Shown piece after piece: positions 5,737-32,500 of a stretch of 64,000 nt of DNA. Numbering within the stretch: the stretch's first letter is position 1; each line of letters begins with the position of its first letter. The notes below the pieces were generated by a model. It saw only the letters and a program-made list of their open reading frames with translations. It had not been told where the DNA came from and did no database searches. The DNA is taken from positions 1-64,000 of IMG/VR virus record IMGVR_UViG_3300022602_000029, one strand, 5' to 3'. This DNA comes from a virus. The translations under genes were made by a program, and so were the position numbers.

Positions 5737-6918
5737 ATGTCACAACTATTAAATGAAAGATGGTCCGAGACCAGGGAAGCTCTGCTTGAAGGCCTACAAG
5801 GTAACCGTCGTGCTTCTATGGGCGTATGCTTAGAGAACACACGTAAGTACCTAGCAGAAGCCGCAACAAGTGGTGCTACAAGCTCTGGAAATATCGCAAC
5901 TTTAAATCGCGTTATTCTTCCAGTTATCCGTCGTGTTATGCCAACAGTTATTGCTAACGAAATCATCGGTGTACAACCAATGACAGGTCCAGTAGCTCAG
6001 ATCCATACACTACGTGTCCGTTATGCTGATACATCATCAGGCGATGGTATCGTAGCAGGTGAAGAGGCATTATCACCATTCAAGATCGCCGCTGCCTATT
6101 CTGGTAACAACCAGGACGCAACTCCAGCTGCCGCTTCAACATCGGCTCTTGAGGGTGCACCAGGTAAGCGTATGAGCATCCAAATCTTGAAAGCACCTGT
6201 AGAAGCTAAGTCACGCAAGCTATCAGCTCGCTGGACCTTCGAGGCTGCACAAGATGCACAAGCTCAACAAGGTATTGATATCGAAGCAGAAATCATGGCT
6301 GCTCTAGCTCAAGAAATTACAGCTGAGATCGACCAAGAGATCTTAACTTCACTACGTACTTTAGCGTCAGTTGAATTAACATACGACCAATCGTTAGTAT
6401 CTGGTACAGCAACATTCGTTGGTGATGAGCATGCCGCATTGGCAATCATGATCAACCGTGCTGCCAACTTGATCGCTCAACGTACACGTCGTGGTGCTGC
6501 AAACTGGGCAGTTGTTTCTAACCAGGCTCTAACGATCCTACAAAGCGCAACTACATCAGCATTTGCTCGTACTACAGAAGGCACATTCGAAGCTCCAACA
6601 AATACAAAATTCGTTGGTACATTGAACGGTGCTATGCGTGTTTATGTTGACGCATACAAGTCTGATACAGACAACAACAACCAAGTATTACTAGGTTATA
6701 AAGGTGCTAGTGAGGCAGATGCTGCCGCGTTCTATTGCCCATATATTCCTTTAATGTCTTCTGGTGTTGTTCTTGATCCAGCAACATTCGAACCAGTAGT
6801 TGGCTTCTTGACACGCTACGGCTATGTCCAGTTGTCTAACACTGCTTCTTCACTAGGTAACGCCGCAGATTACCTAGCTAAAGTTGCTATCAACAGCTCA
6901 ACAGTTAGCTTCCAGTAA
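5737..6918 (+). CDS. gp23: major capsid protein
   Basis: LPVIRRVMP..IANEIIGVQPMTGPVAQI..LR, VEAKSRKLSARWTFEAAQD, LAQEITAEIDQEI, FYCPYIPL and GFLTRYG are gp23-family motifs; AAGGAG SD. Confidence 0.97.
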   Translation: MSQLLNERWSETREALLEGLQGNRRASMGVCLENTRKYLAEAATSGATSSGNIATLNRVILPVIRRVMPTVIANEIIGVQPMTGPVAQIHTLRVRYADTSSGDGIVAGEEALSPFKIAAAYSGNNQDATPAAASTSALEGAPGKRMSIQILKAPVEAKSRKLSARWTFEAAQDAQAQQGIDIEAEIMAALAQEITAEIDQEILTSLRTLASVELTYDQSLVSGTATFVGDEHAALAIMINRAANLIAQRTRRGAANWAVVSNQALTILQSATTSAFARTTEGTFEAPTNTKFVGTLNGAMRVYVDAYKSDTDNNNQVLLGYKGASEADAAAFYCPYIPLMSSGVVLDPATFEPVVGFLTRYGYVQLSNTASSLGNAADYLAKVAINSSTVSFQ

Positions 6919-6937
6919 TCCTGGAATATCGGTAAGC

Positions 6938-6967
6938 AAAAAGCGCTCTACGGAGCGCTTTTTCTTT
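6938..6967 (+). terminator. rho-independent terminator after the capsid gene
   Basis: AAAAAGCGCTC-TACG-GAGCGCTTTTT-CTTT: perfect stem, C(UACG)G tetraloop and U-tract, 20 nt after the gp23 stop. Confidence 0.92.
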
Positions 6968-6975
6968 GCCCCCAA

Positions 6976-6981
6976 TAAATA
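6976..6981 (+). promoter_or_regulatory. late promoter core (TAAATA)
   Basis: Immediately after the terminator; would drive a ~70-nt leader for the gene at 7058. Confidence 0.65.
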
Positions 6982-7057
6982 TCATGTACGCTCAAAAGAG
7001 TTTGTTGCGGCACCACCGCGCAGTGGCTAGAACCCACACAACACAAGGAGAAATTAA

Positions 7058-7759
7058 ATGGCAAGAGGTTTAAAAACATCGGGTAATAATACTACTCAAT
7101 ATACCGGAGCAAACATACAGATCGATTCAGCAATAGGCCCAGAAATCGTAACTTATGTAGCAAACGTCAATACAACAACATATGCCACTACGGTATCTAC
7201 ATATGTATCAGTCTATCTAGGAGGAACAGTAGGAAACCCAACCGGTGTTACACCATTCGTGATCCAAACAGCGTTCCAAACAGCGGCCAGCGTGGCTTAT
7301 AGTGATGGATATATTAAACGTCAACTAGGTCGTAGACAATTCCTGGTACAGAGCTTATCAGGTGGTTCAGCTACTCAAACAGTCTGTACACTAACTAACG
7401 TAGCACCAGGTAGCTTAACTGCACAACAGATGAGCATACAGGCAGTGACTACAACAGGAAGCGTAGTATATGTTGGACGTATCAGTGACAGATTTATCTG
7501 GACAGGCGCCAATGGAACAGGCACACGATACCTATATGTATTAGGTACAGGTGGTACAGTTCCTGGATCAACTAGCACTCTTGCTTATGTTAGCACAGCA
7601 TCAGGCACTAGTTTCTATGTAACTACAAATGCTCCAGCATCAGCTCGAGTTCCAGCAGTAGGAACTTCTAATACCGTAACAGTTGTAACTAACTTAACAC
7701 CAACTCCTATATCTTATGCTATAGTTGCTGGACTAGCTACACCTACTAGAAATTATTAA
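7058..7759 (+). CDS. Thr/Val/Gly-rich putative virion (head decoration or fibre) protein
   Basis: 233 aa, beta-rich composition, AAGGAG SD, monocistronic between a promoter and a hairpin, directly after gp23. The function is inferred. Confidence 0.55.
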   Translation: MARGLKTSGNNTTQYTGANIQIDSAIGPEIVTYVANVNTTTYATTVSTYVSVYLGGTVGNPTGVTPFVIQTAFQTAASVAYSDGYIKRQLGRRQFLVQSLSGGSATQTVCTLTNVAPGSLTAQQMSIQAVTTTGSVVYVGRISDRFIWTGANGTGTRYLYVLGTGGTVPGSTSTLAYVSTASGTSFYVTTNAPASARVPAVGTSNTVTVVTNLTPTPISYAIVAGLATPTRNY

Positions 7760-7780
7760 TCTAGATATAGATTGATATCA

Positions 7781-7804
7781 ATAAGGGCTCTTTTGAGCCC
7801 TTAT
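7781..7804 (+). terminator. stem-loop, probable terminator
   Basis: ATAAGGGCTC-TTTT-GAGCCCTTAT, a perfect 10-bp stem; the U-tract is weak. Confidence 0.55.
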
Positions 7805-7815
7805 CTGTCTGCAGG

Positions 7816-7821
7816 TAAATA
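7816..7821 (+). promoter_or_regulatory. late promoter core (TAAATA)
   Basis: 5 nt upstream of the ATG at 7827; no SD between them. Confidence 0.6.
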
Positions 7822-7826
7822 TAATC

Positions 7827-8342
7827 ATGCCCACTCCTTGGTTCTATCCCACCGTCGTTTCTCAATATCCTGAATCAGATTACCATATTCCTTGGTTAGG
7901 AACTGGTAATGATTTTACATCAATAGTACAAGTGAGGACTAAATCTGATCTTACTTCTGTAGCTAACGATCTACAGCTAAGTAATCTAAGGACTAAATCT
8001 TACTATCTAACTCTCACGGGTTTTGGAATAGATCCTTCTTATATACCATCTCCATTAAATGGAATAGAACTGTATGTCAATGTAAGAAGAGGTGGAAGGG
8101 TGATAGATGATACGGTATCGCTTTATTATAGTAATCAAACTATCAGCACTAATCGAGCACAGGGAGCCATAACTGATTTAACGACCTATGGAGGGGAGAC
8201 AGATCTATGGGATGCAGTACCTATGATATCTACACTGCTAACTGATCCAAGTTTTGGAGTTTTATTGAGATATCAAAGCAACGTTTTCTGGCCTCACAGG
8301 ACTACTCCTAATATGCAACATGTGCAGTTACGCCTCTGGTAA
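7827..8342 (+). CDS. hypothetical protein, probably virion-associated
   Basis: 171-aa ORF with its own late promoter; no family recognised. Confidence 0.6.
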   Translation: MPTPWFYPTVVSQYPESDYHIPWLGTGNDFTSIVQVRTKSDLTSVANDLQLSNLRTKSYYLTLTGFGIDPSYIPSPLNGIELYVNVRRGGRVIDDTVSLYYSNQTISTNRAQGAITDLTTYGGETDLWDAVPMISTLLTDPSFGVLLRYQSNVFWPHRTTPNMQHVQLRLW

Positions 8343-8345
8343 CAA

Positions 8346-8351
8346 TAAATA
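8346..8351 (+). promoter_or_regulatory. late promoter core (TAAATA)
   Basis: Intergenic, followed by AAAAGG SD and the ATG at 8369. Confidence 0.6.
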
Positions 8352-8368
8352 TATAAAAGGAAAAATCA

Positions 8369-9382
8369 ATGGTAACCGATGTCGTTAGAGTTAATGGTAA
8401 CTACAGTATACAAGCAAATAATGGTAGTATAACATTAGCCAGCCCCAACACGGTTATCAACGGAAATCTCACAGTATATGGAACCCAGACCAATGTAGAT
8501 AGCGTTGATGTAACGGTAACAGCTACTATATTAGTCTTAAATCAAGGAGAACCCGGTCCAGGAGTAACAAGGATCACTCCTGGATTTCCTGCCAATAGCG
8601 CAGGTATAATGGTTTCAAGGGGTAGCGGAGACAGTACTAGCCAAGGCGCATTCTTGTTGTATGACGACAGCGTAGTTAGCAGTGACGGCACACATACCTA
8701 TCCCGGAATGTGGAGATTTAACGGAACTACAGCCAATGGCAGTAACGAATTTGGCAGTGTTATACAGGTGCAGGCCATACGAACACCTAATGGTGCTACC
8801 TTAAATCTTTTAGGTGCAGACAATCCCAACGCTAAACTCACAGTCAAAGGTGCTAGCACAGTAACTACCTATGCGTCCAGGATGACTGATCCAGACGACA
8901 TACCTAACAAAGATTATGTAGATCAATTCTATGCTAGAGGTACTACAGTTACACAAAAACTACAGGTCGGTAATAGCTTTATTGAGATATTAGATAACAG
9001 CGTTAACACCAACAGTCAATACTACAGTCCAGTAAATCAGGTCATAGCCGCCCTAGGAACTTCTAGCAATATCGTGTTTACATTAGCCGCACAGTCGGCA
9101 CAGTTTCAAAATATTACCGTAGTCAATAGCACTATACAGGTTACTAATACCAGTACCAATACTAATCTAGCGCTGACTGCTGCCGGCAGTGGAAATATAG
9201 TACTCAACAACGCACTTCAACTAACATATACTACACCACCTAATGTAATCAGCGGTGCTATCAACATATATTCAACAAATACCGTAGGCGGAGGTGGCAC
9301 AGGTTTATTTTATGTAAATACAAATAACACAGATGAACTAGTCAGCCGTACCAAGGCCATAGTTTATGGTATAATATTTTAA
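8369..9382 (+). CDS. putative virion fibre/structural protein
   Basis: 337 aa, beta-strand rich (GNLTVYGTQT..DV.VT..ILVLNQGE), DDIPNKDYVD fibre-type motif, hydrophobic C-terminus KAIVYGIIF. Confidence 0.6.
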   Translation: MVTDVVRVNGNYSIQANNGSITLASPNTVINGNLTVYGTQTNVDSVDVTVTATILVLNQGEPGPGVTRITPGFPANSAGIMVSRGSGDSTSQGAFLLYDDSVVSSDGTHTYPGMWRFNGTTANGSNEFGSVIQVQAIRTPNGATLNLLGADNPNAKLTVKGASTVTTYASRMTDPDDIPNKDYVDQFYARGTTVTQKLQVGNSFIEILDNSVNTNSQYYSPVNQVIAALGTSSNIVFTLAAQSAQFQNITVVNSTIQVTNTSTNTNLALTAAGSGNIVLNNALQLTYTTPPNVISGAINIYSTNTVGGGGTGLFYVNTNNTDELVSRTKAIVYGIIF

Positions 9383-9392
9383 GGTAAAAAAC

Positions 9393-9701
9393 ATGGCTTT
9401 AACAAACGCAATCATAGCATCTACAACAACTACAGCTATATATGTTTCATCGGGGATCACAGCTATCACCACAATGATATTTTGTAACACAGGTGGTGCT
9501 GCCGGAACTCTTACTGTATATGCGGTAGCCAGCGGTAATGTGATAGGAACTAGTACTACGATACTGTCAGTACTACCTTTGCCAGCCACAGAAACTTTTA
9601 CACTTGATACAGAAAAACTTATATTAGGAAACGGAGACACTATCTATGCACAGGCCACCGTTGGAACGATCGGAGTAACTGTCAGTAGCGTACCACTATA
9701 A
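9393..9701 (+). CDS. small beta-sandwich-like structural protein
   Basis: 102 aa; AITTMIFCN...LTVY...ETFTL..EKLILGNGDTIYA; similar in pattern to 16314-16697. Confidence 0.6.
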   Translation: MALTNAIIASTTTTAIYVSSGITAITTMIFCNTGGAAGTLTVYAVASGNVIGTSTTILSVLPLPATETFTLDTEKLILGNGDTIYAQATVGTIGVTVSSVPL

Positions 9702-10429
9702 TGAAATATACAAAACGTCTAACTCTATATCGCGTAAATCCTAGCGATAATACTTTTGCGGTGCAAGGCGGAAACGTTTTGACTACCCTAACAGGAGCGA
9801 TGCAGATACCTTCTGGACCTGAATCTGCACGTCCCAGTAGTCCTGTTAATGGCGAAGTAAGATATAACTCAACTACACAAGATACTGAACTTTACAATAT
9901 TTCTGGATCAGGAACAGGCTGGGAAAAAATCAAGACCAATAGACAGACTGTTATAACTCCTCAAAATCTCGGCACAGGTAATTACTCAAATACTTTATTT
10001 GGACCGTTAGCTTATAATGTTGCTACTAATGCTCCTCAAAATGTTTTGGTATTTGTAGATAACGTTTTCCAGGTACCTAACACTAACTATACTCTAGTAA
10101 CAGGTACTGGTACGAATTCTACAGCATCTATTGTGATATCAACTCCTCCAACGACTACTACAATAAAGATATCAACACTGACTAATATCTTAGTCGGTAT
10201 GACTATAGCAACACAAACTGGTATATCCAACGGAACTACCGTAACCAATGTTAATAGCCTTACTAATTTTATCACAATAAATCCTGCTACCTTCGCACCT
10301 ATAGGTGCTGGAACCGTGTTGACTTTTTCAGAAAGCGCAGGAGTCTACATCAACTTTACCAGCTCAGTCCCAGCCAAACCTGTTTTTGCCTTACTAGGTT
10401 TCGACGGTTATACAGGCTCCAATAACTAA
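9701..10429 (+). CDS. putative virion structural protein
   Basis: 242 aa; IPSG..SARP..PVNGEVRYNSTT motif typical of phage fibre proteins, plus an LVFVDNVFQ.P..NYTL module; coupled by a TAATG overlap. Confidence 0.6.
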   Translation: MKYTKRLTLYRVNPSDNTFAVQGGNVLTTLTGAMQIPSGPESARPSSPVNGEVRYNSTTQDTELYNISGSGTGWEKIKTNRQTVITPQNLGTGNYSNTLFGPLAYNVATNAPQNVLVFVDNVFQVPNTNYTLVTGTGTNSTASIVISTPPTTTTIKISTLTNILVGMTIATQTGISNGTTVTNVNSLTNFITINPATFAPIGAGTVLTFSESAGVYINFTSSVPAKPVFALLGFDGYTGSNN

Positions 10430-10446
10430 TAAATCCTAACTATCGA

Positions 10447-10452
10447 TAAATA
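10447..10452 (+). promoter_or_regulatory. late promoter core (TAAATA)
   Basis: Intergenic; precedes a ~95-nt structured leader of the 1919-aa gene. Confidence 0.65.
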
Positions 10453-10549
10453 AGTTCGATGCCGTGTTTTTTTCGGCAGAACATACAGTGGTAAACCCGC
10501 TATGTAAGGTGGTTATCCGTGAAACTCGGAGGTTTGGGAGCTTGTTCGC

Positions 10550-13500
10550 ATGGCTGTAGGTCGCATATCCGGTCCGTTACTTCAACAGAATTTATTCCGT
10601 GATAATGTTCCACTGGCCTTCTATAATACTAGTAGCCAGACAGAAAACCCAACCCTTTATCTAGATGTCACTGACGGATTTGTTGGTATACAGACTTCAA
10701 GTCCGCAATATCAACTTGATGTTTCTGGTACTATAAACGCAACTAATCTGCGTGTTATTCCTGGCACTTCTCAGCTAGGGAATATGTTATTCAACAACAA
10801 TACCGTGGCAACATCAGTTGGCGGTATTACTATACAGCCTACTGGCGGAAATCAGATAATTTTAGGTAGCATAGTAACAGCTACTGGGCAAACGATATTC
10901 GGCGCTAATATTCAATCAAATACCACTACAAATGGTAGCGTGGTGGTACAAGGCGGACAAGGTATATCAGGAAACCTATATGTCGGCGGTCTAGGTTCTT
11001 TTAATACATTAACTGCAAAGACAGAAACAATTACAGGAAACATAAATTCTACAGGAACTACCACAGGAGCATTAGTAGTTAACGGAGGTGTAGGAGTCGG
11101 AGGAGATGTTTACGTAGGCGGTACTATCTACGGACATATCAGCACAGCTAGTATTTCTAACTTTTATTTTACTGCTACTACAGTTACTATAAGCAACACA
11201 ACTACAGTAGGCGTTTTCTATCCAATGCTTTCCAGCACAAGCAACGGATATGTATCTGTTAATGCTACAGGATCTTTATATTATAACGCAAACACTAACG
11301 TTCTAACTAGTCCTTTTATCTATGTAAGCACGAATACAGAAAGTACAACATCTACTAATGGGGCTCTAATAGTCGCAGGTGGAGCCGGTATACTTAGTAA
11401 TCTAAATGTAGGCGCTACATTATTTGCAAATACCGTTACCGTTAATAACAAACTATCGACTCCTAATTTATCTGCTACCAATGCCACGATAGGTAACCTA
11501 ACCGGCACCAATGCTTCTATTTCGTCATTGACTGCTACAAGTATATTGGTCAATGGAAATATTGATTCCACTAGCACCACTACAGGATCTCTCCTAGTAC
11601 AGGGCGGAGTCGGAATAACAAAAAGTCTAAACGTAGGCGGAAACATAGTAGCACAAGGCAATATTATCGCTAACGGTAATATAATCTTAGGAAGTAACAC
11701 CACTACTGATACTTTAACGATTGATGCAGAGATAGCCAGCGACCTAGTTCCTGCTAAAGATAATACCTATAGCATTGGAACAGCTTCAAATACTTGGGCT
11801 ACTGGCTACGTCAATACATTATATTCAAATATTATTTCTAATCAGTCTGGACAGATATCTATAAATCCGGCCGATAGTTTACTGAATATCAATGCCAGCA
11901 TACGTGTAAATGGTGACAAACCTATCGGTACCGCACCGGTAGTAACTAATCTATTATATGTTACTATGGACGGAGATGATACCAATGATGGTCGTGCACA
12001 AGATGCCAGCCGTGCTTGCCGTACAATAGGCGGTGCGTTGAATAGTCCTTATTATGGACCAGGAACTAGCATACGAGTAGCACCCGGGCATTATTTTGAA
12101 AACAATCCTCTCTTGTTACAGCCTTATACCAGTATCATTGGACAGGATCTAAGAACTACTAGCATAGAACCTATCAATAAAACTCAGGATCTATTCCATC
12201 TTCAGAGCGGTTGTTATCTAGCACAGATGCAGTTTTTAAATGGTCGTAGTGGTGTGTTGCCAGGGTCATATGCAAGTGGATACAACAGAGGTGCTTACGC
12301 TACAGCTTATCCTCCAGAAGTAGACGGATCGCTGATAGATGTTTACCATAGCCCATATATACAAAATTGTACTAACCAATCTGGTCCTTGGCTCTATGAT
12401 GGAACTCTTTTCGTTCCTAATCAAACCATACAAATTCCTCAGGTATTGGGAACTGGAACATGGGCTTCTAGTTCTACAAGTATTACTGTTGTTACCACCG
12501 GTACTATCGTAGTCGGTATGAGCATTAATGGAGGTCATCAAGATCCTGGGTATTTCAATGCTAGGACTTTGCTGTTGGCTAATCAGCAGTTTATACAAGA
12601 ACAGGTAGTGGCTTATGTGAATCAAACATATCCTACATTTGTTTACAATCAGGCATTGTGTTTTAGAGATGTTGGCATTATCGTTCAAAATATCGCATAT
12701 GATGCTACCTTTGGTGGCAATCAGAAAAGCGTAGAATCTGGCCTAGCTTATTGGAATGGAGTTACTAGCGTTGTCGCAGGAGAAATAACCCAAACTATCG
12801 CGGCTATTAACTATATCAATACTCTTTCTCAGCTGATAATCAATAACACGACGGCTACTAATAGATTAGGATCTAGCAGTACGTATTCTCAAGTTATTAA
12901 TACAGCACTAACAGGCGGAAGTATATCCGGTCCTAATCTATCTACTAATATAGGAACTATTACTACCATCATAGCGAATGGTCCTACTAGTGCTCCTACA
13001 GAATATGTCAGTGCCGCGGTCGATAGTAGCTATCTAAGCGCTGAAGTTTTATTACAGCTGAATAGAAACTTTATACAAAATGATACTCTAGCATGGATAG
13101 CTAACACGTATCCTTCGTTTGTTTATAATACAGCTACCTGTTTCCGTGATGTAGGATTGATCATAGATGCCATAAGCCAGGATATACTAATCGGCGGAAA
13201 TAGCAAAACTATAGAAGCCGCACTAAGTTATTGGAATAGCGGATATAGCCAAATAGTAGGACAGATAACTACTACTACGCAGGCCATAAGCCATGCCGCG
13301 AGTGTAGCATTGAATGTAATAACTAATACAGCCGTTACTCCACAGGTGGGAAATGCATCTACACAAACTATCAATACATATTTTAGTGGTGGTGGAGTAG
13401 CTACCCAATCAGTAAACAGAAACTTTAATATTATTAATAATATAATAATAAATGGACCAGGAGTAGCTCCTCCTACATTCCAGGGATATTCTGTATTTGC

Positions 13501-16309
13501 TCCTACAGGTATAACAGGAGATGATATAAAAGTGGCGCCTAAGGTAACAGCAGTATCTACTATATCATCTAATACCTATAACGTAACAATAAATGGGCCC
13601 ACAGTAACTAGTTCAACTAATGCGGCATTATATTTTGGTTACACCGCAGTTTATCCTGTACAAGATACCAGCGTTCCTGATATATGGGCTCAACGTAGAG
13701 TAGATCCTAATGGTTCTATGGGAGGAAGCCTAGTTGACGGTTCAGTGGTCAGCAAGCGCAGTCCAATACAATCATTTGTCTATGACGCTTATACACAGGT
13801 TAACCAAGGTGGCAGAGGTATACATATCATCAACAATGGATACGCACAGTTGGTATCTGTGTTTACTATTTTCTGTTCAACCGCCGTTGAAGTTGATACT
13901 GGAGGAATAGCCAGTATCACTAACTCTAACAGCAACTTTGGTACATATTGCCTAGTAGCCAAGAGTTATGGAAGTAGAGAGTTTAGCGGAACTGTTTATA
14001 ATCCTCCCTATCCAGGATTTGTACAGAACGGAGAATATTATCCTACCGGTTATTTCCCTAACAATGGAAGCGTATTGATATTTGTTCCTGATACATCTAA
14101 CAGGCCGCATATCGCACAGTTAATGGAGATAATTCCTCCTTTAGGTTATATCAATAATCAAGGACTTCCTGGATTTGTAGGAGGCCAAGTAAACACAGGT
14201 ACGCTGACTACTGGATCTATCACTATATCTGGAATCGATGTTTCTTCTGTAGGTATAGGACAGACAGTTTATGTAAGAGATCAATACGGAAATTCTTCAA
14301 AGAATGGCGTGCCATATGTGGCCACAGGTACGATAGTTTCTGATGTAGGATTCCAAACAATCACACTTAATCAAGCTATAGTGACAGGAGGTGGCGATAC
14401 TACTAATCCTAACTATTTTACTGTATACACCTGTGGCAATGCTTATTACACAGTATTAAGCAGTACAGCATATCCTAATCCTGTTCCTGTTGGCCAATCT
14501 ATGATACCACAGATACAGGGCAATGAAATAGTCGCATTAAACTTTATCAGTACTCTTACACAGGCCGTGGTATCAAATATCACAGGTACGAATTATTCGA
14601 CACAGACTCAAACTATAGTTCCTACAGTCACTGGCGGATCTGGATCAGAAAGTTTTATAGCAGGATTTTTTAATACCATCACTAACATAGTAGCTAATGG
14701 TGTTAATACTCCTATTCCTTTAGTGACTTCAGGTACCATACCAAGCGGAGCTGGTAGTGCCATCACATTGATACAAGATAACATAGAATATATCACTCAA
14801 GAGACAGTAGGATATATATCGACCCTATATCCTAATAATCCAAACTATAGCAGGACTACCTGTGCTAGAGATATAGGACTGATACTAAACGCCATCACAC
14901 AAGATTTATTATTTGGAGGAACTAGCCAAAGTACTTTCGCTGGTTTACAATATTGGAGTCAGAATACAAATACCAATGCGATCATTCCTGGAGAAGCTAC
15001 AACGACTACTGCGGCTATAAACTATCTAAGTAGTTTGTCTCAGCTTATAGTACAGAATATAACCACAGGCACACGTTATCAAAGCACGGTTTCGCAGGTA
15101 ACTAATGCCTATACTGGTACCATAGCAGAAGCAAACACACTCGCTGCCGATTTTTCTGTAATAACAAACATATTAACTAATGGAACCGCAGGAGTGACTG
15201 ATCAGATAGTGCCTAATGGACCAGTGGGTCTATTACAGTTGTTCACCGTACAATATGCATTCAATCTGCTAGAAGCAAACAAAACTTATCTGCAGGCAGA
15301 AGTTAATGCCTATATACGTGCTACTAACCCTGGATTCGTATATGATTCAGTGATCTGTGCCAGAGACGTTGGATACATCATAGATTGTGTAGGATTTGAT
15401 TTGCTGTATGGCGGAAACAGACAGGCGATACAGGCAGGCGTATATTATTATGGTTATAGTTCAACTGTTCCTTCTATATCTAATGAGACTACGGCTACGA
15501 TAGCTGCCTATAACTATCTCAGCCAGCTGATACCATATGTAGTAAAAGGAATAACTACAGCTACGGTACAGACATCAGTTCCTCAAGTTATACCTTATGC
15601 TACTGCTACTAATGCTCAGGTAACTGTATTACAGCAGGAAATCAATACTATTACTAATATAATATTAAATGGACCAAGCGTAGCAGGACCTAAAGTACCA
15701 ATAGGATTGACAGCTACTAACAACACTCTATTGTTAAATGCGGCCAATGCTATTATACAAAATACAGCTTTCCTCAAAGCAGAACTAGTAGCCTATATCG
15801 ATAGTTTCTTTGATCTAGGATCATATCAAGCCAAGTGTGCTAGAGATGTTAGACTAATATTACAACAGTTAATTTATGATCTTGAAAACGGTGGAAACTA
15901 TAATGCGGTTTATAGTGGTTTGAGCTATTGGTCAAGAGCAGGCACATACCATTTAGTTAATCTAGAAGAAAATGTAACCGATCCTACGCTATTCCCAGAT
16001 GGTTGTACAGCGAATTTCTATCAAAGGAGCTATATCAGCGCATCTGGATATACATTTGAATATGTAGGAGCAGGTACTAACTATGGATCTTTACCTCAAG
16101 TAGGAGTAGCAGATCCTCAACAAGACCAAGAAGTGGTCATGTTAGATGGAGGAAAGGTATTCTATACATCAACAGACCAAAACGGAGATTTCAGGATAGG
16201 ACCAGAATTGGTTATCAGCCAGGCGACTGGTGTACTAAGCGGACGAACATTTACAAAATCACTGTTCGCTAACCTGACACCATTTATATTAGCGATCGAA
16301 CAAGGATAA
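10550..16309 (+). CDS. giant virion structural / tail-fibre-like protein with a pectin-lyase-like beta-helix segment and five CxRD helical repeats
   Basis: 1919 aa; TGAL.V.GG.G shaft repeats; LYVTMDGDDTNDGRA...RTIGGAL and SPYIQNCT motifs seen in beta-helix spike proteins of T4-like phages; five C-x-R-D...GG repeats. Confidence 0.7.
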   Translation: MAVGRISGPLLQQNLFRDNVPLAFYNTSSQTENPTLYLDVTDGFVGIQTSSPQYQLDVSGTINATNLRVIPGTSQLGNMLFNNNTVATSVGGITIQPTGGNQIILGSIVTATGQTIFGANIQSNTTTNGSVVVQGGQGISGNLYVGGLGSFNTLTAKTETITGNINSTGTTTGALVVNGGVGVGGDVYVGGTIYGHISTASISNFYFTATTVTISNTTTVGVFYPMLSSTSNGYVSVNATGSLYYNANTNVLTSPFIYVSTNTESTTSTNGALIVAGGAGILSNLNVGATLFANTVTVNNKLSTPNLSATNATIGNLTGTNASISSLTATSILVNGNIDSTSTTTGSLLVQGGVGITKSLNVGGNIVAQGNIIANGNIILGSNTTTDTLTIDAEIASDLVPAKDNTYSIGTASNTWATGYVNTLYSNIISNQSGQISINPADSLLNINASIRVNGDKPIGTAPVVTNLLYVTMDGDDTNDGRAQDASRACRTIGGALNSPYYGPGTSIRVAPGHYFENNPLLLQPYTSIIGQDLRTTSIEPINKTQDLFHLQSGCYLAQMQFLNGRSGVLPGSYASGYNRGAYATAYPPEVDGSLIDVYHSPYIQNCTNQSGPWLYDGTLFVPNQTIQIPQVLGTGTWASSSTSITVVTTGTIVVGMSINGGHQDPGYFNARTLLLANQQFIQEQVVAYVNQTYPTFVYNQALCFRDVGIIVQNIAYDATFGGNQKSVESGLAYWNGVTSVVAGEITQTIAAINYINTLSQLIINNTTATNRLGSSSTYSQVINTALTGGSISGPNLSTNIGTITTIIANGPTSAPTEYVSAAVDSSYLSAEVLLQLNRNFIQNDTLAWIANTYPSFVYNTATCFRDVGLIIDAISQDILIGGNSKTIEAALSYWNSGYSQIVGQITTTTQAISHAASVALNVITNTAVTPQVGNASTQTINTYFSGGGVATQSVNRNFNIINNIIINGPGVAPPTFQGYSVFAPTGITGDDIKVAPKVTAVSTISSNTYNVTINGPTVTSSTNAALYFGYTAVYPVQDTSVPDIWAQRRVDPNGSMGGSLVDGSVVSKRSPIQSFVYDAYTQVNQGGRGIHIINNGYAQLVSVFTIFCSTAVEVDTGGIASITNSNSNFGTYCLVAKSYGSREFSGTVYNPPYPGFVQNGEYYPTGYFPNNGSVLIFVPDTSNRPHIAQLMEIIPPLGYINNQGLPGFVGGQVNTGTLTTGSITISGIDVSSVGIGQTVYVRDQYGNSSKNGVPYVATGTIVSDVGFQTITLNQAIVTGGGDTTNPNYFTVYTCGNAYYTVLSSTAYPNPVPVGQSMIPQIQGNEIVALNFISTLTQAVVSNITGTNYSTQTQTIVPTVTGGSGSESFIAGFFNTITNIVANGVNTPIPLVTSGTIPSGAGSAITLIQDNIEYITQETVGYISTLYPNNPNYSRTTCARDIGLILNAITQDLLFGGTSQSTFAGLQYWSQNTNTNAIIPGEATTTTAAINYLSSLSQLIVQNITTGTRYQSTVSQVTNAYTGTIAEANTLAADFSVITNILTNGTAGVTDQIVPNGPVGLLQLFTVQYAFNLLEANKTYLQAEVNAYIRATNPGFVYDSVICARDVGYIIDCVGFDLLYGGNRQAIQAGVYYYGYSSTVPSISNETTATIAAYNYLSQLIPYVVKGITTATVQTSVPQVIPYATATNAQVTVLQQEINTITNIILNGPSVAGPKVPIGLTATNNTLLLNAANAIIQNTAFLKAELVAYIDSFFDLGSYQAKCARDVRLILQQLIYDLENGGNYNAVYSGLSYWSRAGTYHLVNLEENVTDPTLFPDGCTANFYQRSYISASGYTFEYVGAGTNYGSLPQVGVADPQQDQEVVMLDGGKVFYTSTDQNGDFRIGPELVISQATGVLSGRTFTKSLFANLTPFILAIEQG

Positions 16310-19700: not shown

Positions 19701-20507
19701 GATAATAGTTATAGTAGTACTCCTAGTGCAGGTATAATCATACAAAGTAACGCAACAACAAGCCACGGTAGCCTAACCTTTAGGAATGTTAATGCGAATG
19801 GGCAGAGTTATACATGGGATGTAGGCGGAAATAACAGGGCCGGTGGTAATGGGTCCGTGATAAGCGAAGGTAGCCTTACTCTTTTTGATGATATAGCAGG
19901 AGTTTATCGCCTGGCTGTACATAAAGGGTCTGGCGCTGTATTGATAAATCAGATCACAGACGACGGATTTAACAAGCTACAGGTAACAGGTGGCATCAAT
20001 ACAGACAATCTAAACGTAGCTAATTCGGCTACTATTGGACAGAGCCTTACGGTAGGCGTGACCACGTTTAACGGTTTCATAACAGTTAATACCAGTAGTA
20101 TTTTCAACGGTGTTGCCAAATTCTATAACACAGCGAGTTTTTATGGGCCTGTAGTGATAACAGGCACCGTAGTTATAGGAAGTAGCGCACTACAAACCTC
20201 TGTAACCTTGGTAAATACAACGAATCCAACATCTATTGATAGTTTTGATTCTACGTTGTATAGATCCGCTAAGAGTTTAGTACAGATAGAAGACTTAGAC
20301 AATGGAAGTTTTTATGTTGTAGAAGTCGTGTTGCTAGTCGATAATGCGAGTAATGTTTATATAAGCCAGTATGGTATTATAACAACCGCTTCTCCTCTAG
20401 GAGATTTTTCGACAGGGATAGTGGGTAATAATGTAGTATTGTATTTCACAGCATACGATACTACAAATAAAAAGATCAACGTGGTGCAAACAGCGATAAG
20501 TGTCTAA
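16710..20507 (+). CDS. long fibre protein (TGALxVxGGxG shaft repeats)
   Basis: 1265 aa; many TGA[L/V]xVxGGxG[I/V] repeats; DNIVDL...YDDGKDIG module also present in the 26551 gene; C-terminal IDSF...YRSAKSLVQI...YISQYG domain. No Cys found on reading. Confidence 0.75.
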   Translation: MPTILSGAVVQTGSSSSFITLAQAQPALQITPSTNTGYTIIVNTASNIEYTNLLGSLVFDSGTITNYNSGTDIGIYNLGGGFLQVYTSTFLNNTSAVTDGTDSYGTTSGAFVVTGGVGIGKNLNIGGITTIAANIASNSTQTGSLVVGGGFGVGGDIYVGGNLVFTNAKQGTLTSEKVTVLGTYTSVSTTTGAVVVQGGVGIGGSLYSGPVYDNGNRVVSVVNAGRGIAVSTSSGPTVLVTNTGVLTLTAGTGTVVNTSTGDITVWINPTNVLLTLQQVTNAGNTTNLPVYFNNQSNAISSITGAVVVAGGVGISQDLYIGGNITANGVNLTSSANSTLQANNGIFKTLSVTGTNFSTTTFSNNALYVAGGAGVGSSLAVGGDAVIYGNLYVQGTYTTFVTQNIAIGRNVIALSTASGPAILANGSGITVGPVASPFASFLYDGITSWQSLGSINPTLDLAYNLGSSGLRWNTVYGGSAIFNDGANSISTQTGALVVQGGIGVSGDSLFAGEIKFTSPLQATSTLTGALIIQGGVGIGGSIYAGNIYSNGILLTSGGGGGGGTGTINLIAGADIALTTTTQGTVISNTSTLQTVTSRGNTTINPIVITNGQNSYNATSGALQVTGGGSFASNLWIGGNSYFNGYATQLFSTNTFIYDNIVDLHFNVNNWTYDDGKDIGLKFNYYYGASTATGFLGRSDASGHLVWFSTGNELANGKFTGTGGVFETGSIQLNSTSTASITSLGGIAAAGPLYINNSATISGTIYAGPIFSNYAPVLTSANLSSFGVADIIAGTGTSVSSSTGNVIIWNTLNLNQVSQNGNTTSFPIGILNGTNTYSTATGALTVSGGVGVNGGVFVGGTVTATNATFNNLAVQIENISNSLTINSTQQIPLQITNPQNGTSTVLINAVGTDTNSHGGLVIQNNLGNYLELGINSSGRTISQYGVGSAYLYTNPFLPSLNIGNSSTINFWSQNVASANPPAMSIASTTTTIINNLLVEDNSYSSTPSAGIIIQSNATTSHGSLTFRNVNANGQSYTWDVGGNNRAGGNGSVISEGSLTLFDDIAGVYRLAVHKGSGAVLINQITDDGFNKLQVTGGINTDNLNVANSATIGQSLTVGVTTFNGFITVNTSSIFNGVAKFYNTASFYGPVVITGTVVIGSSALQTSVTLVNTTNPTSIDSFDSTLYRSAKSLVQIEDLDNGSFYVVEVVLLVDNASNVYISQYGIITTASPLGDFSTGIVGNNVVLYFTAYDTTNKKINVVQTAISV

Positions 20508-26550: not shown

Positions 26551-29500
26551 ATGGCAAAACTACTCGGCGGCACGATAATATACGGTACAGGAACTATCCA
26601 ATCTACACTATATGTAGGAGGGATACTCAATACGGGCACGGCAGTATCGAACTCGACTATCACAGGAGCCCTACAGGTAGTTGGTGGTGTCGGGGTAGGC
26701 GGTAACATCAACGCAGGCGGCTATATCACTGCCCAAAGCGGATTCTATGCTGTCAATACCTACACCGGAGGTTATAGTGACGGCATAGTAGTCGACTATG
26801 TCAATGGAACTATAGGTAATGGACGTATCAGTGTTGGCCCTCAAGATAATATCACATTCTACAATGGTGGTCCTGCGACTACAGCTACCATGCAGATTTC
26901 TTCAAGCGGTACTGTTTATGTTCCAACAGGCATCACATCAAACTCTACGCTCACAGGCAGTCTTGTAGTAGCAGGCGGAGTTGGCATCGGCGGTAACCTG
27001 TACGTAGGTGGTATCATCGCCGGTTCCATAAGCAGTTCAACCAATATATCTGGAGGACAAGCTGGTTATATTCCTATACAGAGTGCTCCTAACGCTACTA
27101 GTTTTATAGGTACAGGTAGTGTAGGTTATGTGCTACAGATGCAGATCAACAACACAGCTACTTGGGTAAGTACTGGTTCTTTGGGTATTAGCGGAGGCGG
27201 AGGCGGCAGCTTAAACGCCTATTGTAGCTACTATGTAACTAGCCCAACTGTGTCTACTAGCGGTGTCAATAACATAGCTATCGGATGTTGTGCTTTAAGT
27301 AATAATACTACTGGGTGTAACAATCTAGCACTAGGTTATGGATCTCTTAGATTAAACACCACTGGGACCAGTAACTTCGCCGTGGGCTATAGGACGTTGG
27401 CAGGTAACACAGGTGGATTTAATAATATCGCCATAGGATGCTGTGCGCTGTTAGGCAACACATTTGGATCTAGCAACTTTGCGGTTGGTTCGCAGACACT
27501 GGGAAAGAATACCTATGGCTGCAATAATACAGCGATAGGATCAGGAGCACTAGCTAACAATACTACAGGAAGTCAAAATTTCGCCGCAGGTCCTAATGCA
27601 CTTGGAAACAATACGTTTGGTAACAACAATACAGCTATTGGGCAGGGTGCGTTGCTTGCCAATACCACAGGAAGCAATAACTTTGCTGTGGGTTATGCCG
27701 CACTCCGAGCCAACACAGGGGGAGGAAATAATCTAGCCCTGGGTACATGGGCTATGACCAATAGCATAACTGGACAGAATAACATAGCATTAGGTTATCA
27801 ATCCATGAGCTTCTATGTGGCAGGATGTAACAATATTGCCTTAGGTGTAAACTCTTTATATGGATTAGCTGGCACTTATGGATCTAATAATGTAGCTATA
27901 GGTGGTAACACCATGCGTGCCAATACCACTGGTTCTAATAATACAGCTATTGGGTATGGATCCTTGAAATCCAACGTCACTGGCTGCAACAACGTGGCTA
28001 TCGGCTATTATGGAATGCATAATAACATCTCCGGTCAGGCTAACACGGCTATAGGATATCAAACATTATATAATAACACCGGAGGTAACTTTAACACAGC
28101 GATCGGTTGTTATGCTTTATTCTGCAATACCACAGGTTGCTATAACACGGCTATAGGTCCTAGCGCATTGTATTTCAACACAGGTAGCGGTAATACTGCT
28201 ATAGGATGTCTAGCACTAAATCTAAACACCTATGGCTGCATGAACATAGCTATCGGTAATAGCGCTATGAGGTGCAACCTTACTGGCTGTAATAATATAG
28301 CATTTGGCAATAATTCCATGTGTGGAAACCTAAATGGTAGCCATAACTTTGCCGCAGGCTGTCAGTCGCTTAACAATAACACCGCAGGTAACTATAACAC
28401 AGCGATAGGCGTCAACGCATTATTTTGTAACACTACTGGATCTAATAATACCGCGTTAGGAAATAGTGCTTTATACCTTAACTGCACGGGATCAAACAAC
28501 ATAGCTATAGGATCTAGTGCTCTTGTTAAAAATACCTACGGTAATTCTAATATAGCATTGGGTTATCAGTCTTTATGTGCCAATACTACAGGACAGAATA
28601 ATATCGCCATGGGCACCTGTGCTTTGGTAGCTAACAATACAGGCAGTTTTAACGTAGCCATAGGTTGTAATGCGTTATATGGCAATACTAGCGGTAACTA
28701 CAACAATGCTGTAGGTGTTTTTTCTCTAAGGAACAGTACTACTGGTATAGCCAACTTCGCAGGAGGTTACGCAGCCTTATCAAGTAATTCATCAGGTAGT
28801 TACAATACAGCAATAGGTCATTGTTCGATGGCTTATAATAATACCGGTAACTGTAATATAGCATTAGGTCCTTATTCCTTATATGGTATAGTCACAGGAT
28901 GTAATAACTTTGCCGCAGGTGCTTATGCTCTTTTCAGCAATACAGGAGGCTGTGCTAACGTGGCCATCGGCCTTAGCGCTCTTAACAAAAACACCACTGG
29001 TTATGGAAACGTAGGCATTGGTGCTAATTCTGGATACAACAATACTTCAGGATGTGATAACATATCCGTGGGAATCTGTGGATTATACTGTAATATAAGC
29101 GGCAGCCATAACATAGCTATCGGAGCCTGTGCATTATATGCCAATACCGGCACCAACAACGTGGCTCTTGGATTTACTGCTTTAAGAAATAACAGCTGGG
29201 GCTATGGCAACATAGCAGTGTCTAGAGGAGCTCTGTGCCATAACACATATGGACAGAATAATATCGGTCTTGGTAGTCTTTCTCTATATTGCAACACCGT
29301 AGGCTGTAGCAACTTTGCGGCAGGTGTATGCGCTTTATATTCTAACACCGCTGGTAATAGCAATATAGCTATAGGCGCCAGCGCCTTGCTTTACAATACG
29401 ACCGGCTATAATAACATAGCGATGGGCTGTTTATCATTGTTTTCTAACACTAGTGGTTACAACAACATCGCCATGGGCTATCAGGCCCTGTATCTCAATA

Positions 29501-32500
29501 CCTATGGAGTCCATAATATAGCGTTTGGACAGGCAGCAGGCTATTCTTTAACGACCGGTAGTAGCAACTTCGCCGCGGGATATACTGCTCTTAACAACTT
29601 AACTACTGGTTGTTCAAACATAGCCATAGGTATGCGAGCCTTATTCTGCAGTACCTATGGTGGCGGAAACTTTGGAGCCGGTGGCTACACTCTGTTTAAT
29701 AACACCACTGGCTGTAACAACACAGCTATAGGTTGCTATGCTGGCTGCGGATATACCGTTAATGGAGGTAATAACAACGTAGCGATAGGTTATCAAGCAT
29801 TGTATTGCAATACCGTGTCTAATAACATAGCTATAGGCTATAGGAGCATGTTCGCCAACACCTACGGAGCGCAAAACATAGCCCTAGGAAGCCAGACATT
29901 GGCTAGTAATATCAGCGGAACTACAAACATAGCCATAGGCTGTAACTCACTACAATTCAATACCGGCGGTAGTTGTAACGTGGCACTAGGTTATGGATCT
30001 CTACGATTTAATACCACAGGTTCCGGAAACTTCGCAGTGGGCTGTAATGCTTTATATTCTAACACCGGCGGTAGCGGTAACACGGCCATCGGAACTGGCG
30101 CTTTAGGCTCCAATGTTATAGGAGGAAGTAATTTCGCTGCTGGTCAGGGCTCATTAGGCAGCAATATCAGTGGCTGTAATAACGTGGCCATCGGCCAGAA
30201 CGCATTAGGCAAGAACTATTGTAATCATAATTTCGCCGCTGGCTATCAGGCCATGTATAATAACACCGGAGGTAGTGGTAATACCGCTATCGGTTGTTTC
30301 GCATTAAATGCCAATACTTATGGCGTCATGAACATAGGTATCGGTAATAGCGCACTGGTGAAAAACACCACAGGTAACTGGAACATAGCCTTAGGTAATA
30401 ACAGTTTATACTATAACACAGGTGGATGTAACAACTTTGCCGCAGGATGCCTAGCATTGTTCTGTAACACTACAGGTAACAACAATATAGCTGTAGGTAA
30501 TAATGCGCTTTATGGCAATAGCGGAGGTATGATGAACGTGGCCCTAGGGTGTTTTGCCTTGCAGGCCAATACTACAGGTAGCAATAACTTCGCTGTTGGT
30601 TATGCTACATTATACCGCAACACTATAGGTAATAATAATGTCGCCATAGGTTCGGCCTCGCTATATGGTAATCAGACGGGCTGTAGCAATATCGCTATTG
30701 GTCCCAATGCTCTAAGATGTAACACGTCGGGCAGTCATAATATAGCATTAGGCTGTGCGGCCATGCTGTGTAATACCTGTGGCTACAACAACGTAGCTAT
30801 AGGACAGAACGCATTAATATGTAATACTACAGGAAACCAAAACGTTGCGCTGGGGCAGAATACCTTATATTTTAATACCGGTGGTAGCTACAATATGGCC
30901 ATAGGTAGCTGTGCCCTTTTCAGAAATATATGTGGTAGTAATAATATGGCCATGGGTATATATACCTTAGCCAGCAATACCTATGGAAGTTACAACGTTG
31001 GTATCGGTGACTGTGTGTTAACTAAAAATACAGCAGGTGTTTATAACTTCGCATTTGGCCACGGTGCCATGTATGGTAATACCTACGGTAGTTATAATGT
31101 TTCGTTGGGAGGAAGAGGATTATGCTGTAACCTAAGCGGTTGTTATAACATAGCATTGGGATATAATTCTTTAGCACAGAATACTGCTGGTAACTGTAAC
31201 ATAGCATTCGGAGTGTGTAGTTTATTCGCTAATACTACCGGTGTTAACAACTTTGCCGCAGGTGCCGGCGCACTAACTAGCAATACCACAGGTTGCGGAA
31301 ATACAGCTATAGGCTGTGCCGCACTTTGCAATCACACAACCGGTATAAACAACTTCGCTGTAGGCGGAGGAGCCATGAAGAATGTTACCTATGGTGCCAA
31401 CAACACAGCATTTGGATTCTTTTCGTTATATTGTAGCCTAATCGGTTCCAACAATACTGCTATCGGTTGCGCATCAATGCAGTATAACACAGGTAGCCAA
31501 AATATTGCGGTCGGGGCTTATACACTAAGAGGAGCCAATGGCGCCTGCAACTGCGGAGGTTGCAACATCGCGATGGGCTATAGTTCGATGTCTTGTAATA
31601 CATACGGAAGCACTAACGTGGCATTAGGTTTTCAGACATTGAATTGTAATATCAGCGGTAGCAATAACGTAGCTATCGGCTCCAATGCCATGACCTGTAA
31701 TATAGCCGGTTACAATAACATCGCTATAGGTAACCTGCCGTTGGTTTCTAACACAGGCGGTACCTACAACGTGGCGCTAGGTGCGAGGAGCATGTACGGT
31801 AATACTACTGGTAGTGGAAATATAGCTATTGGCTGCCAGTCACTGTGCGCCAATACGGTAGGTGGTTCTAACATCGCGCTAGGTGGTCAGGCCATGTTCT
31901 GTAACATCAGCGGCGTAAACAATGTGGCCATTGGCCAGAGTGCTCTTTACAGCAACACCATAGGCTGTAACAATCTAGCTATCGGACTATTTTCTCTTTG
32001 TGGCAATACCAATGGTGTGCATAATGTTGCGTTAGGACGAGAAACTCTATACTACAACACAGCTGGTAACTTTAATACTGCTATCGGTTATTGCTCACTT
32101 TATAACAATACAGTAGGCACTAGTAACATAGCTATCGGCTGCCAGACGCTTGTTAGCAATACCGCCGGAAATTATAATCTAGCGATGGGAGTCAACGCAC
32201 TATGCTCTAATACATATGGTTTAAATAACATAGCTTTAGGTTACACTGCGTTATCAAAAAATACCACTGGCGGTCAAAATATTGCTATTGGATGCCAGAA
32301 TTTGTTTGCCAACACTGTCGGCGGGCAGAATATCGCTATGGGTAGTAACGCTATGTTCTTCAATACATCGGGCTGTTGCAATATTGCTATAGGTAGCGCC
32401 GCATTATATGGCAACACAGGAGGTAGTGATAATACTGCTATCGGCCAAGGCGCACTACAGAAAAATGCCACAGGTTGCCATAACGTAGCGATTGGCTATG

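Follow-up and report, generated by a model that had tools for sequence, protein, structure and literature searches.

Light-harvesting phycobiliproteins (PBPs) are stand-alone subunits of approximately 160–175 amino acids, which are encoded in alpha/beta gene pairs and occur together with linkers and lyases. ApcE attaches its bilin, a linear tetrapyrrole, without a lyase. The characteristic CXRD motif comprises the covalently binding Cys and two hydrogen-bonding partners of the bilin, and according to the same source those BBAGs that possess CXRD attach bilins themselves without the help of lyases (Rockwell et al., 2023, PMC10151467). The main text of that study mentions phages only for their bilin reductases, and elsewhere the role of the bilin-synthesis genes of phages has been stated to be one that "remains a mystery" (PMC3037559). 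The present analysis concerns the first 64,000 nucleotides (referred to as the window) of the IMG/VR virus record IMGVR_UViG_3300022602_000029, in which a gene for a virion protein of the tail-fibre type, P0001, contains five C-x-R-D helices that a preliminary description of the sequence had likened to the bilin site of phycocyanin alpha. Judged by homology and predicted fold, the repeats that surround these helices can be regarded with high confidence as remote but genuine members of the PBP/bilin-binding-globin superfamily that consist of the globin core only and are distinct from canonical alpha or beta subunits. The gene and its repeats, with the E-values of a repeat profile hidden Markov model (HMM) and the scores of the single repeats for the Pfam family PF00502, are as follows:

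10550..16309, plus strand: tail-fibre-type virion protein P0001, which holds all repeats; intact frame of 1919 amino acids
12509..12958, plus strand: PBP-like repeat 1, residues 654–803, Cys704 at nucleotide 12659; HMM E 5.3e-53; 17.1 bits for PF00502 alone
12995..13432, plus strand: PBP-like repeat 2, residues 816–961, Cys864 at nucleotide 13139; HMM E 6.7e-48; 16.5 bits for PF00502 alone
14426..14671, plus strand: degenerate partial repeat, residues 1293–1374, C-terminal half of the unit, without C-x-R-D; HMM positions 74–146, E 1.1e-5
14711..15160, plus strand: PBP-like repeat 3, residues 1388–1537, Cys1438 at nucleotide 14861; HMM E 2.1e-51; 14.0 bits for PF00502 alone
15236..15649, plus strand: PBP-like repeat 4, residues 1566–1699, Cys1603 at nucleotide 15356; HMM E 3.3e-50; no match to PF00502 alone
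15692..16150, plus strand: PBP-like repeat 5, the most divergent, residues 1717–1861, Cys1763 at nucleotide 15836; HMM E 2.3e-33; no match to PF00502 alone
16001..16300, plus strand: C-terminal domain of approximately 100 amino acids common to the C-termini of phage tail-fibre families (PHROG matches)

The Cys codon positions and the sequences quoted for the five C-x-R-D sites in the preliminary description proved exact. The same holds for the preceding helix of the form N..[F/Y][I/L]..[E/D]..[A/G][Y/W][I/V], which is present in front of all five motifs and is followed by YP in copies 1–3 and by NP in copy 4. The phycocyanin-alpha motif cited there for comparison is found letter for letter in a phycocyanin-alpha gene on a metagenome contig (L110), and the E-helix of repeat 5 agrees with it at the eight positions that had been named (C1, R3, D4, L9, Y14, L16, and G19-G20). 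Based on the amino acid composition of P0001, 0.008 C.RD motifs would be expected in place of the five observed, and the 18,889 residues of the 32 other plus-strand open reading frames (ORFs) of at least 100 amino acids in the window contain none. The motif cysteines, which make up 5 of the 13 cysteines in the protein, are separated by 160, 574, 165, and 160 residues. The repeat HMM recognized five full copies (domain E-values from 2e-33 to 5e-53) and one partial copy of an all-helical unit of approximately 150 amino acids, and the partial copy was detected again at 14504–14674 (E = 9.3e-4). Since the motifs sit inside repeats that are mutually homologous, the recurrence of C-x-R-D is not due to chance.

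The complete P0001 sequence exceeded the threshold of PF00502 (Phycobilisome), the family that the preliminary description had proposed for comparison, with an E-value of 1.8e-6 and 28.5 bits vs. a cut-off of 22.2 (residues 689–769, profile positions 63–141 of 155). Because the single repeats score below the cut-off, this result requires the summation of several weak copies; a six-frame PF00502 search of the record obtained no match at E ≤ 0.001 among three candidates scored, while the protein-level scan passes. A phmmer search of whole P0001 against the PDB sequences did not retrieve any match. A profile derived from an alignment of 48 repeat copies from the window and 12 viral contigs (alignment A1; L001–L003, L005–L010, L012, L013) had 21 matches at E ≤ 10 among 177,635 distinct PDB sequences, with a best E-value of 0.0054. 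PBPs accounted for 18 of these matches (17 phycocyanin-alpha chains and one phycoerythrocyanin-beta chain), and the alignment spans helix A/B through helix E and places the repeat Cys on Cys84. A second alignment (A2) consisted of 23 phycocyanin alpha and 27 beta subunits that were collected from metagenome contigs via a motif scan. Comparison of A1 with A2 by hhalign resulted in a probability of 85.4% and an E-value of 5.8e-6 over 64 columns, with the C, R, and D of the repeat falling on the invariant C84, R86, and D87 of A2. The repeats are thus in the same register as the PBPs for Cys84/Arg86/Asp87, the GG turn 18–19 residues further on, and the helix-B Asn.

The structure of repeat 1 predicted by AlphaFold2 contains six helices (pLDDT 73.1, pTM 0.74), and a tandem model of repeats 1–2 shows this six-helix pattern twice (pLDDT 78.0, pTM 0.62). 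When repeat 1 was compared by Foldseek with 350,542 PDB chains, all rows listed to rank 49 were PBPs, with probabilities of 0.98–1.00 and TM-scores of 0.46–0.69. A search by VIA-align among 48,161 representative chains was led by phycoerythrin (Z 12.9), far-red allophycocyanin (Z 12.0), and the bilin domain of ApcE (Z 11.6), followed by photocobilins (Z 10.1–10.7) and then by heme globin sensors and RsbR (Z 7.0–9.3); ApcE chains in whole phycobilisomes were aligned with Z 10.3–10.9. PBPs ranked first again for the tandem model, and a fold unrelated to globins and PBPs, which the preliminary description had envisaged as a counter-argument, was obtained in neither case. The N-terminal X-Y hairpin involved in alpha-beta pairing is absent from both models, in which approximately 12 unstructured residues precede helices A and B, and the structural alignments begin at PBP residues 17–34. 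According to the models, the repeat domain keeps the globin helices A, B, E, F, G, and H and is devoid of the X-Y hairpin. The placement of the repeat in the PBP superfamily follows from the convergence of Pfam, the profile search against the PDB, hhalign, and the comparison of two models by two structural aligners, which also supports the earlier proposal of globin-fold, phycobiliprotein-like modules within a virion protein.

Residues 640–970 of P0001 retrieved 1049 proteins at E ≤ 0.001 among 7,999 candidates scored, and conservation was counted in 120 listed homologues. These are 1,864–3,303 amino acids long, carry for the most part a precomputed PF00502 match, and contain 1,618 repeat copies (6–20 each). 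Cys, Arg, and Asp occur together in 1427 of the 1480 copies without gaps in the three motif columns, and the Cys itself is present in 1431, at a pairwise identity between copies of roughly 30%. Among the 49 copies without the Cys, 21 retain both Arg and Asp. In S-PM2, P-HM2, and Syn9, the Cys was found in all 14 rows aligned at the motif (of 16 rows, two of which contain only gaps), and several S-PM2 copies read KC[RK]RDIG[HY]F, which is close to the phycocyanin motif. The chromophore triad is under strong constraint, and the lack of Cys conservation that the preliminary description had considered as an objection does not apply. Other nearly invariant positions of the repeat are Asn24 (92%), Gly55 (88%), Asp64 (99%), Gly77 (89%), Tyr80 (99%), and Gln127 (89%). 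Asn24 pairs with the helix-B Asn of PBPs and Gly77 with a Gly in PBP alignments; Asp64 and Tyr80 are repeat-specific.

According to a profile search, P0001 is the sole repeat-bearing gene in the whole 193.7-kb record. A counterpart with 98% identity (P0097, 1967 amino acids) was found in another metagenome. P0001 matches the tail-fibre families phrog_5342 (E = 1.6e-63), phrog_17885, and phrog_4527, and its residues 1818–1917 correspond to the final 100 positions of both phrog_17885 and phrog_3442, with a further match to phrog_529. The term "phage spike" used in the preliminary description was appropriate insofar as P0001 is a virion protein of the fibre type, but "spike" is too loose, as the PHROG families and the cultured homologues are tail-fibre and baseplate-wedge giants. 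The gene had no megablast match among 50,697 phage records, and a look-up in the ESM Atlas was uninformative, with scores of only 0.81–0.84 to viral clusters without names. The region from residue 1 to approximately 460 (10550–11930) is rich in Gly, Thr, Ser, and Asn, and a recurring "...G.L.V.GG.G(I/V).G.(L/V)..." can be read from its translation. It has no family match in Pfam or PHROG, and this N-terminal quarter of the protein is probably a fibre shaft.

Among 1.84 billion proteins, the repeat profile detected 1,562 representative proteins at E ≤ 0.001 (688 at E ≤ 1e-30) with up to 36 copies per protein. A tblastn search with repeats 1–2 matched 223 of the 50,697 cultured-phage records, which are named as "Synechococcus" (n = 189), "Cyanophage" (n = 25), "Prochlorococcus" (n = 8), and "Marine virus" (n = 1). 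This last record, the only match not named as a cyanophage, was single-cell amplified. The matched regions are annotated as gp7 baseplate wedge subunit in P-HM1 and P-HM2, as tail fiber or short tail fiber protein in S-PM2 and others, and as virion structural protein or putative fiber in Syn9. In BFVD the same fold is present in tail and structural proteins of cyanophages and in uncultured Caudovirales, with PBP in none of the names. A scan of prokaryotes (one genome per species) with repeats 1–2 retrieved 261 pattern stretches and no relative by a method that reaches close relatives only, which is weak evidence that cellular genomes lack the repeat. Among isolates, the repeat is confined to cyanophages, to which a jumbo-phage lineage is added of which one member encodes bilin synthesis. 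The databases already "know" the relationship silently, because PF00502 is precomputed for most homologues. No description of PBP-type domains in phage virion proteins was found in the literature searched, which did not extend to the supplements of the cited papers. The novelty lies in the occurrence of a bilin-binding-globin-type domain in a new architecture and in a new place, the phage fibre.

The member of the jumbo-phage lineage with bilin synthesis genes, G001 (328,068 bp, 92% complete), has a head protein 91% identical to that of the present record and a repeat protein with at least 15 copies in one protein (L002). Its heme oxygenase gene (163,523–164,065) is overlapped at its end by a gene for a ferredoxin-dependent bilin reductase (164,040–164,714), and the pair lies approximately 150 kb from the repeat gene. 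Neither CpeT nor psbA was found in G001. The neighbourhood of the pair has no counterpart within the 193.7 kb of the present record, and only 3 loci were recovered from IMG/VR with the G001 bilin reductase as query. The two genes are part of a host-like island (L246, G001:156001–172000, locus positions ~6640–15628), which further encodes Hsp20, ClpS, the curli secretion proteins CsgF and CsgG, a FecR-domain protein, a PA14-domain protein, and a CHASE2-adenylate/guanylate cyclase. The genes for curli export, which are unusual for a phage, are a hint at a Gram-negative host envelope in the case of G001.

The co-occurrence of the repeat with CpeT was assessed in 18 complete RefSeq genomes, comprising 17 cyanomyoviruses and the podovirus P-SSP7. 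These were used instead of 80 IMG/VR loci obtained with P-HM2 gp8, which were mostly fragments of less than 90 kb. The genomes were distributed as follows:

Repeat and CpeT (n = 12): P-HM1, P-HM2, S-PM2, S-SM1, P-RSM4, Syn33, Syn19, Syn1, S-SSM5, P-SSM4, Syn9, S-RSM4
Repeat without CpeT (n = 2): S-ShM2, P-SSM7
CpeT without repeat (n = 0)
Neither repeat nor CpeT (n = 4): P-SSM2, S-SM2, S-SSM7, P-SSP7

The association has a one-sided Fisher p of 0.0049 (0.0147 without the podovirus), but is a lead only, because these values are uncorrected for relatedness. The four repeat-negative genomes stayed negative with a profile of cyanophage copies, which detects S-ShM2 and P-SSM7 strongly. In S-PM2, cpeT (163,961–164,470) is located 1.5 kb upstream of the repeat-bearing giant coding sequence (CDS; 165,928–177,267). 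In Syn1 it (19,950–20,462) lies upstream of the repeats, which start at 21,720, and in S-RSM4 cpeT (176,535–177,038) is close to the repeats at 170,002–173,580 on the minus strand and likewise upstream. The S-PM2 RefSeq record (NC_006820.1, L029) places 16 tRNA features (168,556–173,383), all with the common locus tag S-PM2t009, inside this giant "short tail fiber protein" CDS, whose frame is open there for 3,792 amino acids, which suggests an error in coordinates or annotation. A bilin reductase is encoded by P-HM1, P-HM2, and P-SSM2 and was not found in S-PM2. Bilin genes and the repeat are therefore not tied one to one, since the reductase is present in the repeat-less P-SSM2 and missing from the repeat-bearing S-PM2.

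The adsorption of some of these phages depends on light. Darkness is reported to prevent the adsorption of P-HM1 and P-HM2 and to reduce, without abolishing it, that of P-SSM2 in comparison with the light, and the podoviruses P-SSP7 and P-GSP1 also adsorb without light (Liu et al., 2019, PMC6628666; preprint 10.1101/167650). The light-requiring adsorption of S-PM2 is described as independent of photosynthesis (Jia et al., 2010, as cited by Liu et al., 2019, PMC6628666). The three light-requiring phages P-HM1, P-HM2, and S-PM2 carry 4, 4, and 9 repeat matches, and the dark-adsorbing P-SSM2 and P-SSP7 carry none. A bilin sensor borne on the fibre would lead one to expect this distribution, but five related genomes prove nothing.

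Each C-x-R-D helix is the E-helix of a domain of approximately 150 amino acids descended from the PBP/bilin-binding-globin family, and five such domains and a decayed sixth are strung like beads along a virion protein of the tail-fibre type. In the explanation favoured here, a bilin would be taken up as a thioether on the conserved Cys during folding of the fibre in the infected cell. The pigment might be supplied by the host or by a phage heme oxygenase and bilin reductase as in the close relative, and attachment might be autocatalytic as in BBAGs or assisted by a lyase. Of the explanations considered, domains that still take a bilin are the most likely one, because the Cys and its Arg and Asp partners are kept in approximately 96% of 1,480 diverged copies. 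With the co-occurrence data and the bilin synthesis genes of the close relative also taken into account, the chances that a bilin is bound on the conserved Cys appear about even. The virion would then be a biliprotein, whose most attractive role would be to let the adsorption apparatus sense light and so to account for the light requirement of P-HM1, P-HM2, and S-PM2 in adsorption. That bilin-bearing repeats render the adsorption apparatus light-sensitive and gate adsorption is a tentative suggestion and rather improbable. In that case, phage ho1, the pebS/pcyA/pcyX-type reductases, and cpeT would at least partly serve the pigmentation of the virion and not the host antenna. More doubtful still is the generalization that the virions of many marine cyanomyoviruses and of aquatic jumbo phages of ~330–350 kb are biliproteins, in which arrays of chromophorylated domains gate adsorption by light and which are partly pigmented by the phage bilin genes.

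Several points weigh against this explanation. With regard to homology, the single repeats all remain below the PF00502 cut-off (17.1, 16.5, and 14.0 bits) or, in the case of repeats 4 and 5, score nothing, and the hhalign alignment is only 64 columns long. The Foldseek E-values are weak (best 0.016, none ≤ 0.001), helical models may reach VIA-align Z-scores of ~13 through common arrangement alone, and the F' region is poorly modelled, with pLDDT values below 50 at residues 84–88 of the repeat-1 model. As for the pigment, cyanophage particles are not known to be coloured or fluorescent, although no search was aimed at this point. Syn9 copies have D or T where Arg is expected, and canonical PBPs usually need lyases. 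The search for bilin synthesis and lyase genes that had been suggested in the preliminary description was negative for the present genome: the 193.7-kb record, which is ~54% complete according to CheckV, yielded neither psbA nor any gene for heme oxygenase, bilin reductase, CpeT, or CpeS, a Pfam scan of 149 further ORFs of the record revealed none of these either, and there is no other PF00502 gene in it. The capsid and terminase are nearest to those of jumbo phages of Proteobacteria. It is the Cys-153 site, and not Cys84, on which T-type lyases such as CpeT are described to act (PMC10452541). The correlations with CpeT and with adsorption are based on 18 and 5 related genomes, respectively. 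Finally, P-SSM2 has a bilin reductase without the repeat, and light still raises its adsorption as reported by Liu et al. (2019). Phage bilin genes and light effects on adsorption therefore do not depend on the repeat module alone, and the enhancement by light in a repeat-less phage means that other factors in adsorption exist.

The main alternative is that a PBP-derived domain has been repurposed as a rigid, stackable fibre spacer free of pigment, in which Cys, Arg, and Asp as well as Asp64 and Tyr80 would be kept for folding, packing, and chain contacts. It is a real possibility, if not a probable one. The presence of 6–36 copies per giant fibre protein is what would be expected of structural beads, the models lack the light-harvesting X-Y hairpin, and the invariant Asp64 and Tyr80 (99% each) have no counterpart in PBPs. 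The lack of bilin genes in the present record points in the same direction, and the retention of Arg and Asp in 21 of the 49 Cys-less copies shows that the triad is not lost as a unit. However, packing is a poor explanation for a single Cys that persists in 1431 of 1480 copies despite a pairwise identity of roughly 30%, and the retained residues are exactly the chromophore residues of the PBP family. Bilin-free globin folds (globin sensors and RsbR, Z 7.0–9.3) rank lower, and the close relative G001 possesses both heme oxygenase and bilin reductase. The conserved columns include no conspicuous His or other position suited to ligating heme, and the sequence and profile matches go to phycocyanins and not to heme globins. 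It is thus unlikely that pocket and Cys serve another ligand, such as heme, an inter-chain metal, or a host surface molecule, even though the globin fold takes varied ligands and both heme sensors (Z 7–9) and photocobilins, which hold B12 and bilin (Z 10–11), are among the structural matches. A covalent cross-link that stabilizes the fibre, which belongs to the same group of explanations, would have to cope with one Cys per domain, from which a regular disulfide net in a three-fold fibre could hardly be made.

Two further explanations received even lower probabilities. It is very unlikely that the domains act as an intracellular decoy that soaks up host bilins or lyases or docks on phycobilisomes before or apart from virion assembly: the carriers are annotated as virion, fibre, or baseplate proteins in Syn9, S-PM2, and P-HM2 and lie in a structural gene block in the present record, the models suggest that the hairpin for alpha/beta pairing is missing, and the phage lineage, in which no psbA was seen, may not infect a cyanobacterium. 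Such a role would nevertheless fit the resemblance to PBP alpha subunits, the restriction to cyanophages among cultured phages, and the co-occurrence with cpeT. Barely credible, and the least probable of all, is convergence or chance, by which a helical repeat with C-x-R-D would merely mimic the PBP fold. The identity to PBPs in the repeat-1 structural alignments is only 12–16%, and helical bundles easily reach middling structural scores, yet four independent methods (the Pfam threshold, the profile against the PDB, hhalign, and two aligners on two models) agree on PBPs, and the register of Cys84/Arg86/Asp87, the GG turn, and the helix-B Asn is identical.

The phage from which the record derives is an uncultivated jumbo phage of roughly 350 kb that belongs to the T4 superfamily. 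Its major head protein (5737–6918, plus strand) is 68–70% identical to those of jumbo phages of Proteobacteria with genomes of ~350–470 kb (GAP32, Serratia BF, Vibrio 2.275.O, and Sinorhizobium Phosso), and its terminase is 57% identical to that of PA5oct-like phages. An affiliation with the T4-like cyanomyoviruses was rejected, because capsid and terminase are nearest to the GAP32-like and PA5oct-like jumbo phages, though fibre-type proteins are shared with cyanophages. A virion protein of 1068 amino acids (52623–55829, plus strand) is 44–46% identical over its full length to proteins of S-CAM1 and S-CAM3, and 41 of its 46 matched records are cyanophages. From these sequence comparisons, the genome appears to be a mosaic with a cyanophage-like virion protein and a head protein like that of the jumbo phages of Proteobacteria. 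The evidence on the host is divided, with a hint at a cyanobacterium coming from the adsorption apparatus but not from the core genes. The window represents a structural block in which portal, protease, and major head protein are followed by a run of fibre-type giants, and the repeat gene has the portal, protease, and major head genes upstream and fibre and other virion structural genes downstream. Four more fibre-type proteins share a different repeat (PHROG 23837/6002/4636):

26551–35172, plus strand: fibre-type protein with the different repeat
44996–52585, plus strand: fibre-type protein with the different repeat
59407–61782, plus strand: fibre-type protein with the different repeat
61784–64000, plus strand: fibre-type protein with the different repeat

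This repeat has up to 31 matched stretches in one protein. The PBP-like repeat was also considered for the other giant proteins of the window, but none of them carries any copy. A gene for a 2OG-Fe(II) oxygenase (58287–59111, plus strand) is located within the fibre block, and S-PM2 has one (L029, 5308–5889) between cpeT and the repeat-bearing giant gene, so that 2OG-Fe(II) oxygenases may be recurring neighbours of fibre genes. Outside the window, at ~127–151 kb of the record (L023, L024), seven radical-SAM genes, a tryptophan halogenase, several 2OG oxygenases, and sugar-nucleotide enzymes are encoded. The same block contains Fe-S assembly genes (NifU and two of the HesB type) and a gene for a small S74-chaperone protein.

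The repeats offer a concrete candidate for the solution of two puzzles of cyanophage biology, namely light-dependent adsorption and the purpose of the phage bilin genes. If bilin binding is true, they would constitute a photoreceptor on a virus particle and a new, naturally tandem, and possibly self-attaching biliprotein scaffold. Even without a bound bilin, they plainly show that phages have taken over a host light-harvesting fold as a component of their fibres.

The phage repeat shares with the alpha and beta subunits of phycocyanin and phycoerythrin (PF00502) the globin-like helical core, the helix-E C-x-R-D at Cys84/Arg86/Asp87, the frequent Lys before the Cys, the Gly two residues after the Asp, the equally spaced GG turn, and the conserved helix-B Asn and F-G-region Gly. 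It differs from them by the missing X-Y hairpin, the low identity of ~12–16%, and the arrangement in tandem arrays of 5–36 domains within giant virion proteins. Unlike in the case of light-harvesting PBPs, no alpha/beta gene pairs, discs, or linkers were seen, and the domains are internal repeats of a protein of 1919 amino acids. ApcE (Z 11.6, 4xxi) resembles the phage protein in that a PBP-type domain is embedded in a large multidomain protein. However, ApcE combines one such domain with linker repeats in the phycobilisome core, whereas in the phage fibre the PBP-type domain itself is repeated. Like the phage repeats, the BBAGs and the photoglobins/photocobilins are PBP relatives outside light harvesting, and BBAG-1 and BBAG-3 are described as having CXRD and attaching bilins without a lyase (PMC10151467). 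According to the same source, BBAGs are single-domain cellular proteins whose genes cluster with those of heme oxygenase and ferredoxin-dependent bilin reductase. The phage domains, in contrast, are part of a virion protein, and no such clustering was observed, as the present record has neither gene and the pair in G001 is ~150 kb away from the repeat gene. The cyanobacteriochrome-like GAF folds of cyanophages (PMC12481020) are likewise of a bilin-photoreceptor type and predicted from structure, with their function untested there; they have another fold, and the available text of that report describes no virion-fibre context, tandem arrays, or PBP/globin domain for them. The same repeat as in P0001 is carried by the gp7-like giants of cyanomyoviruses (P-HM2 gp7, S-PM2 p091 and the "short tail fiber" CDS, and Syn9 gp101), which have 2–13 repeat matches per genome, with 13 in S-RSM4, in proteins of 3,000–7,000 amino acids. 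Their annotations, which speak of baseplate wedge, tail fibre, or virion structural proteins in agreement with the fibre type of P0001, never refer to the PBP relationship. The phage described here, with a capsid protein 68–70% identical to those of GAP32-like jumbo phages, carries this repeat in a lineage other than that of the cyanomyoviruses.

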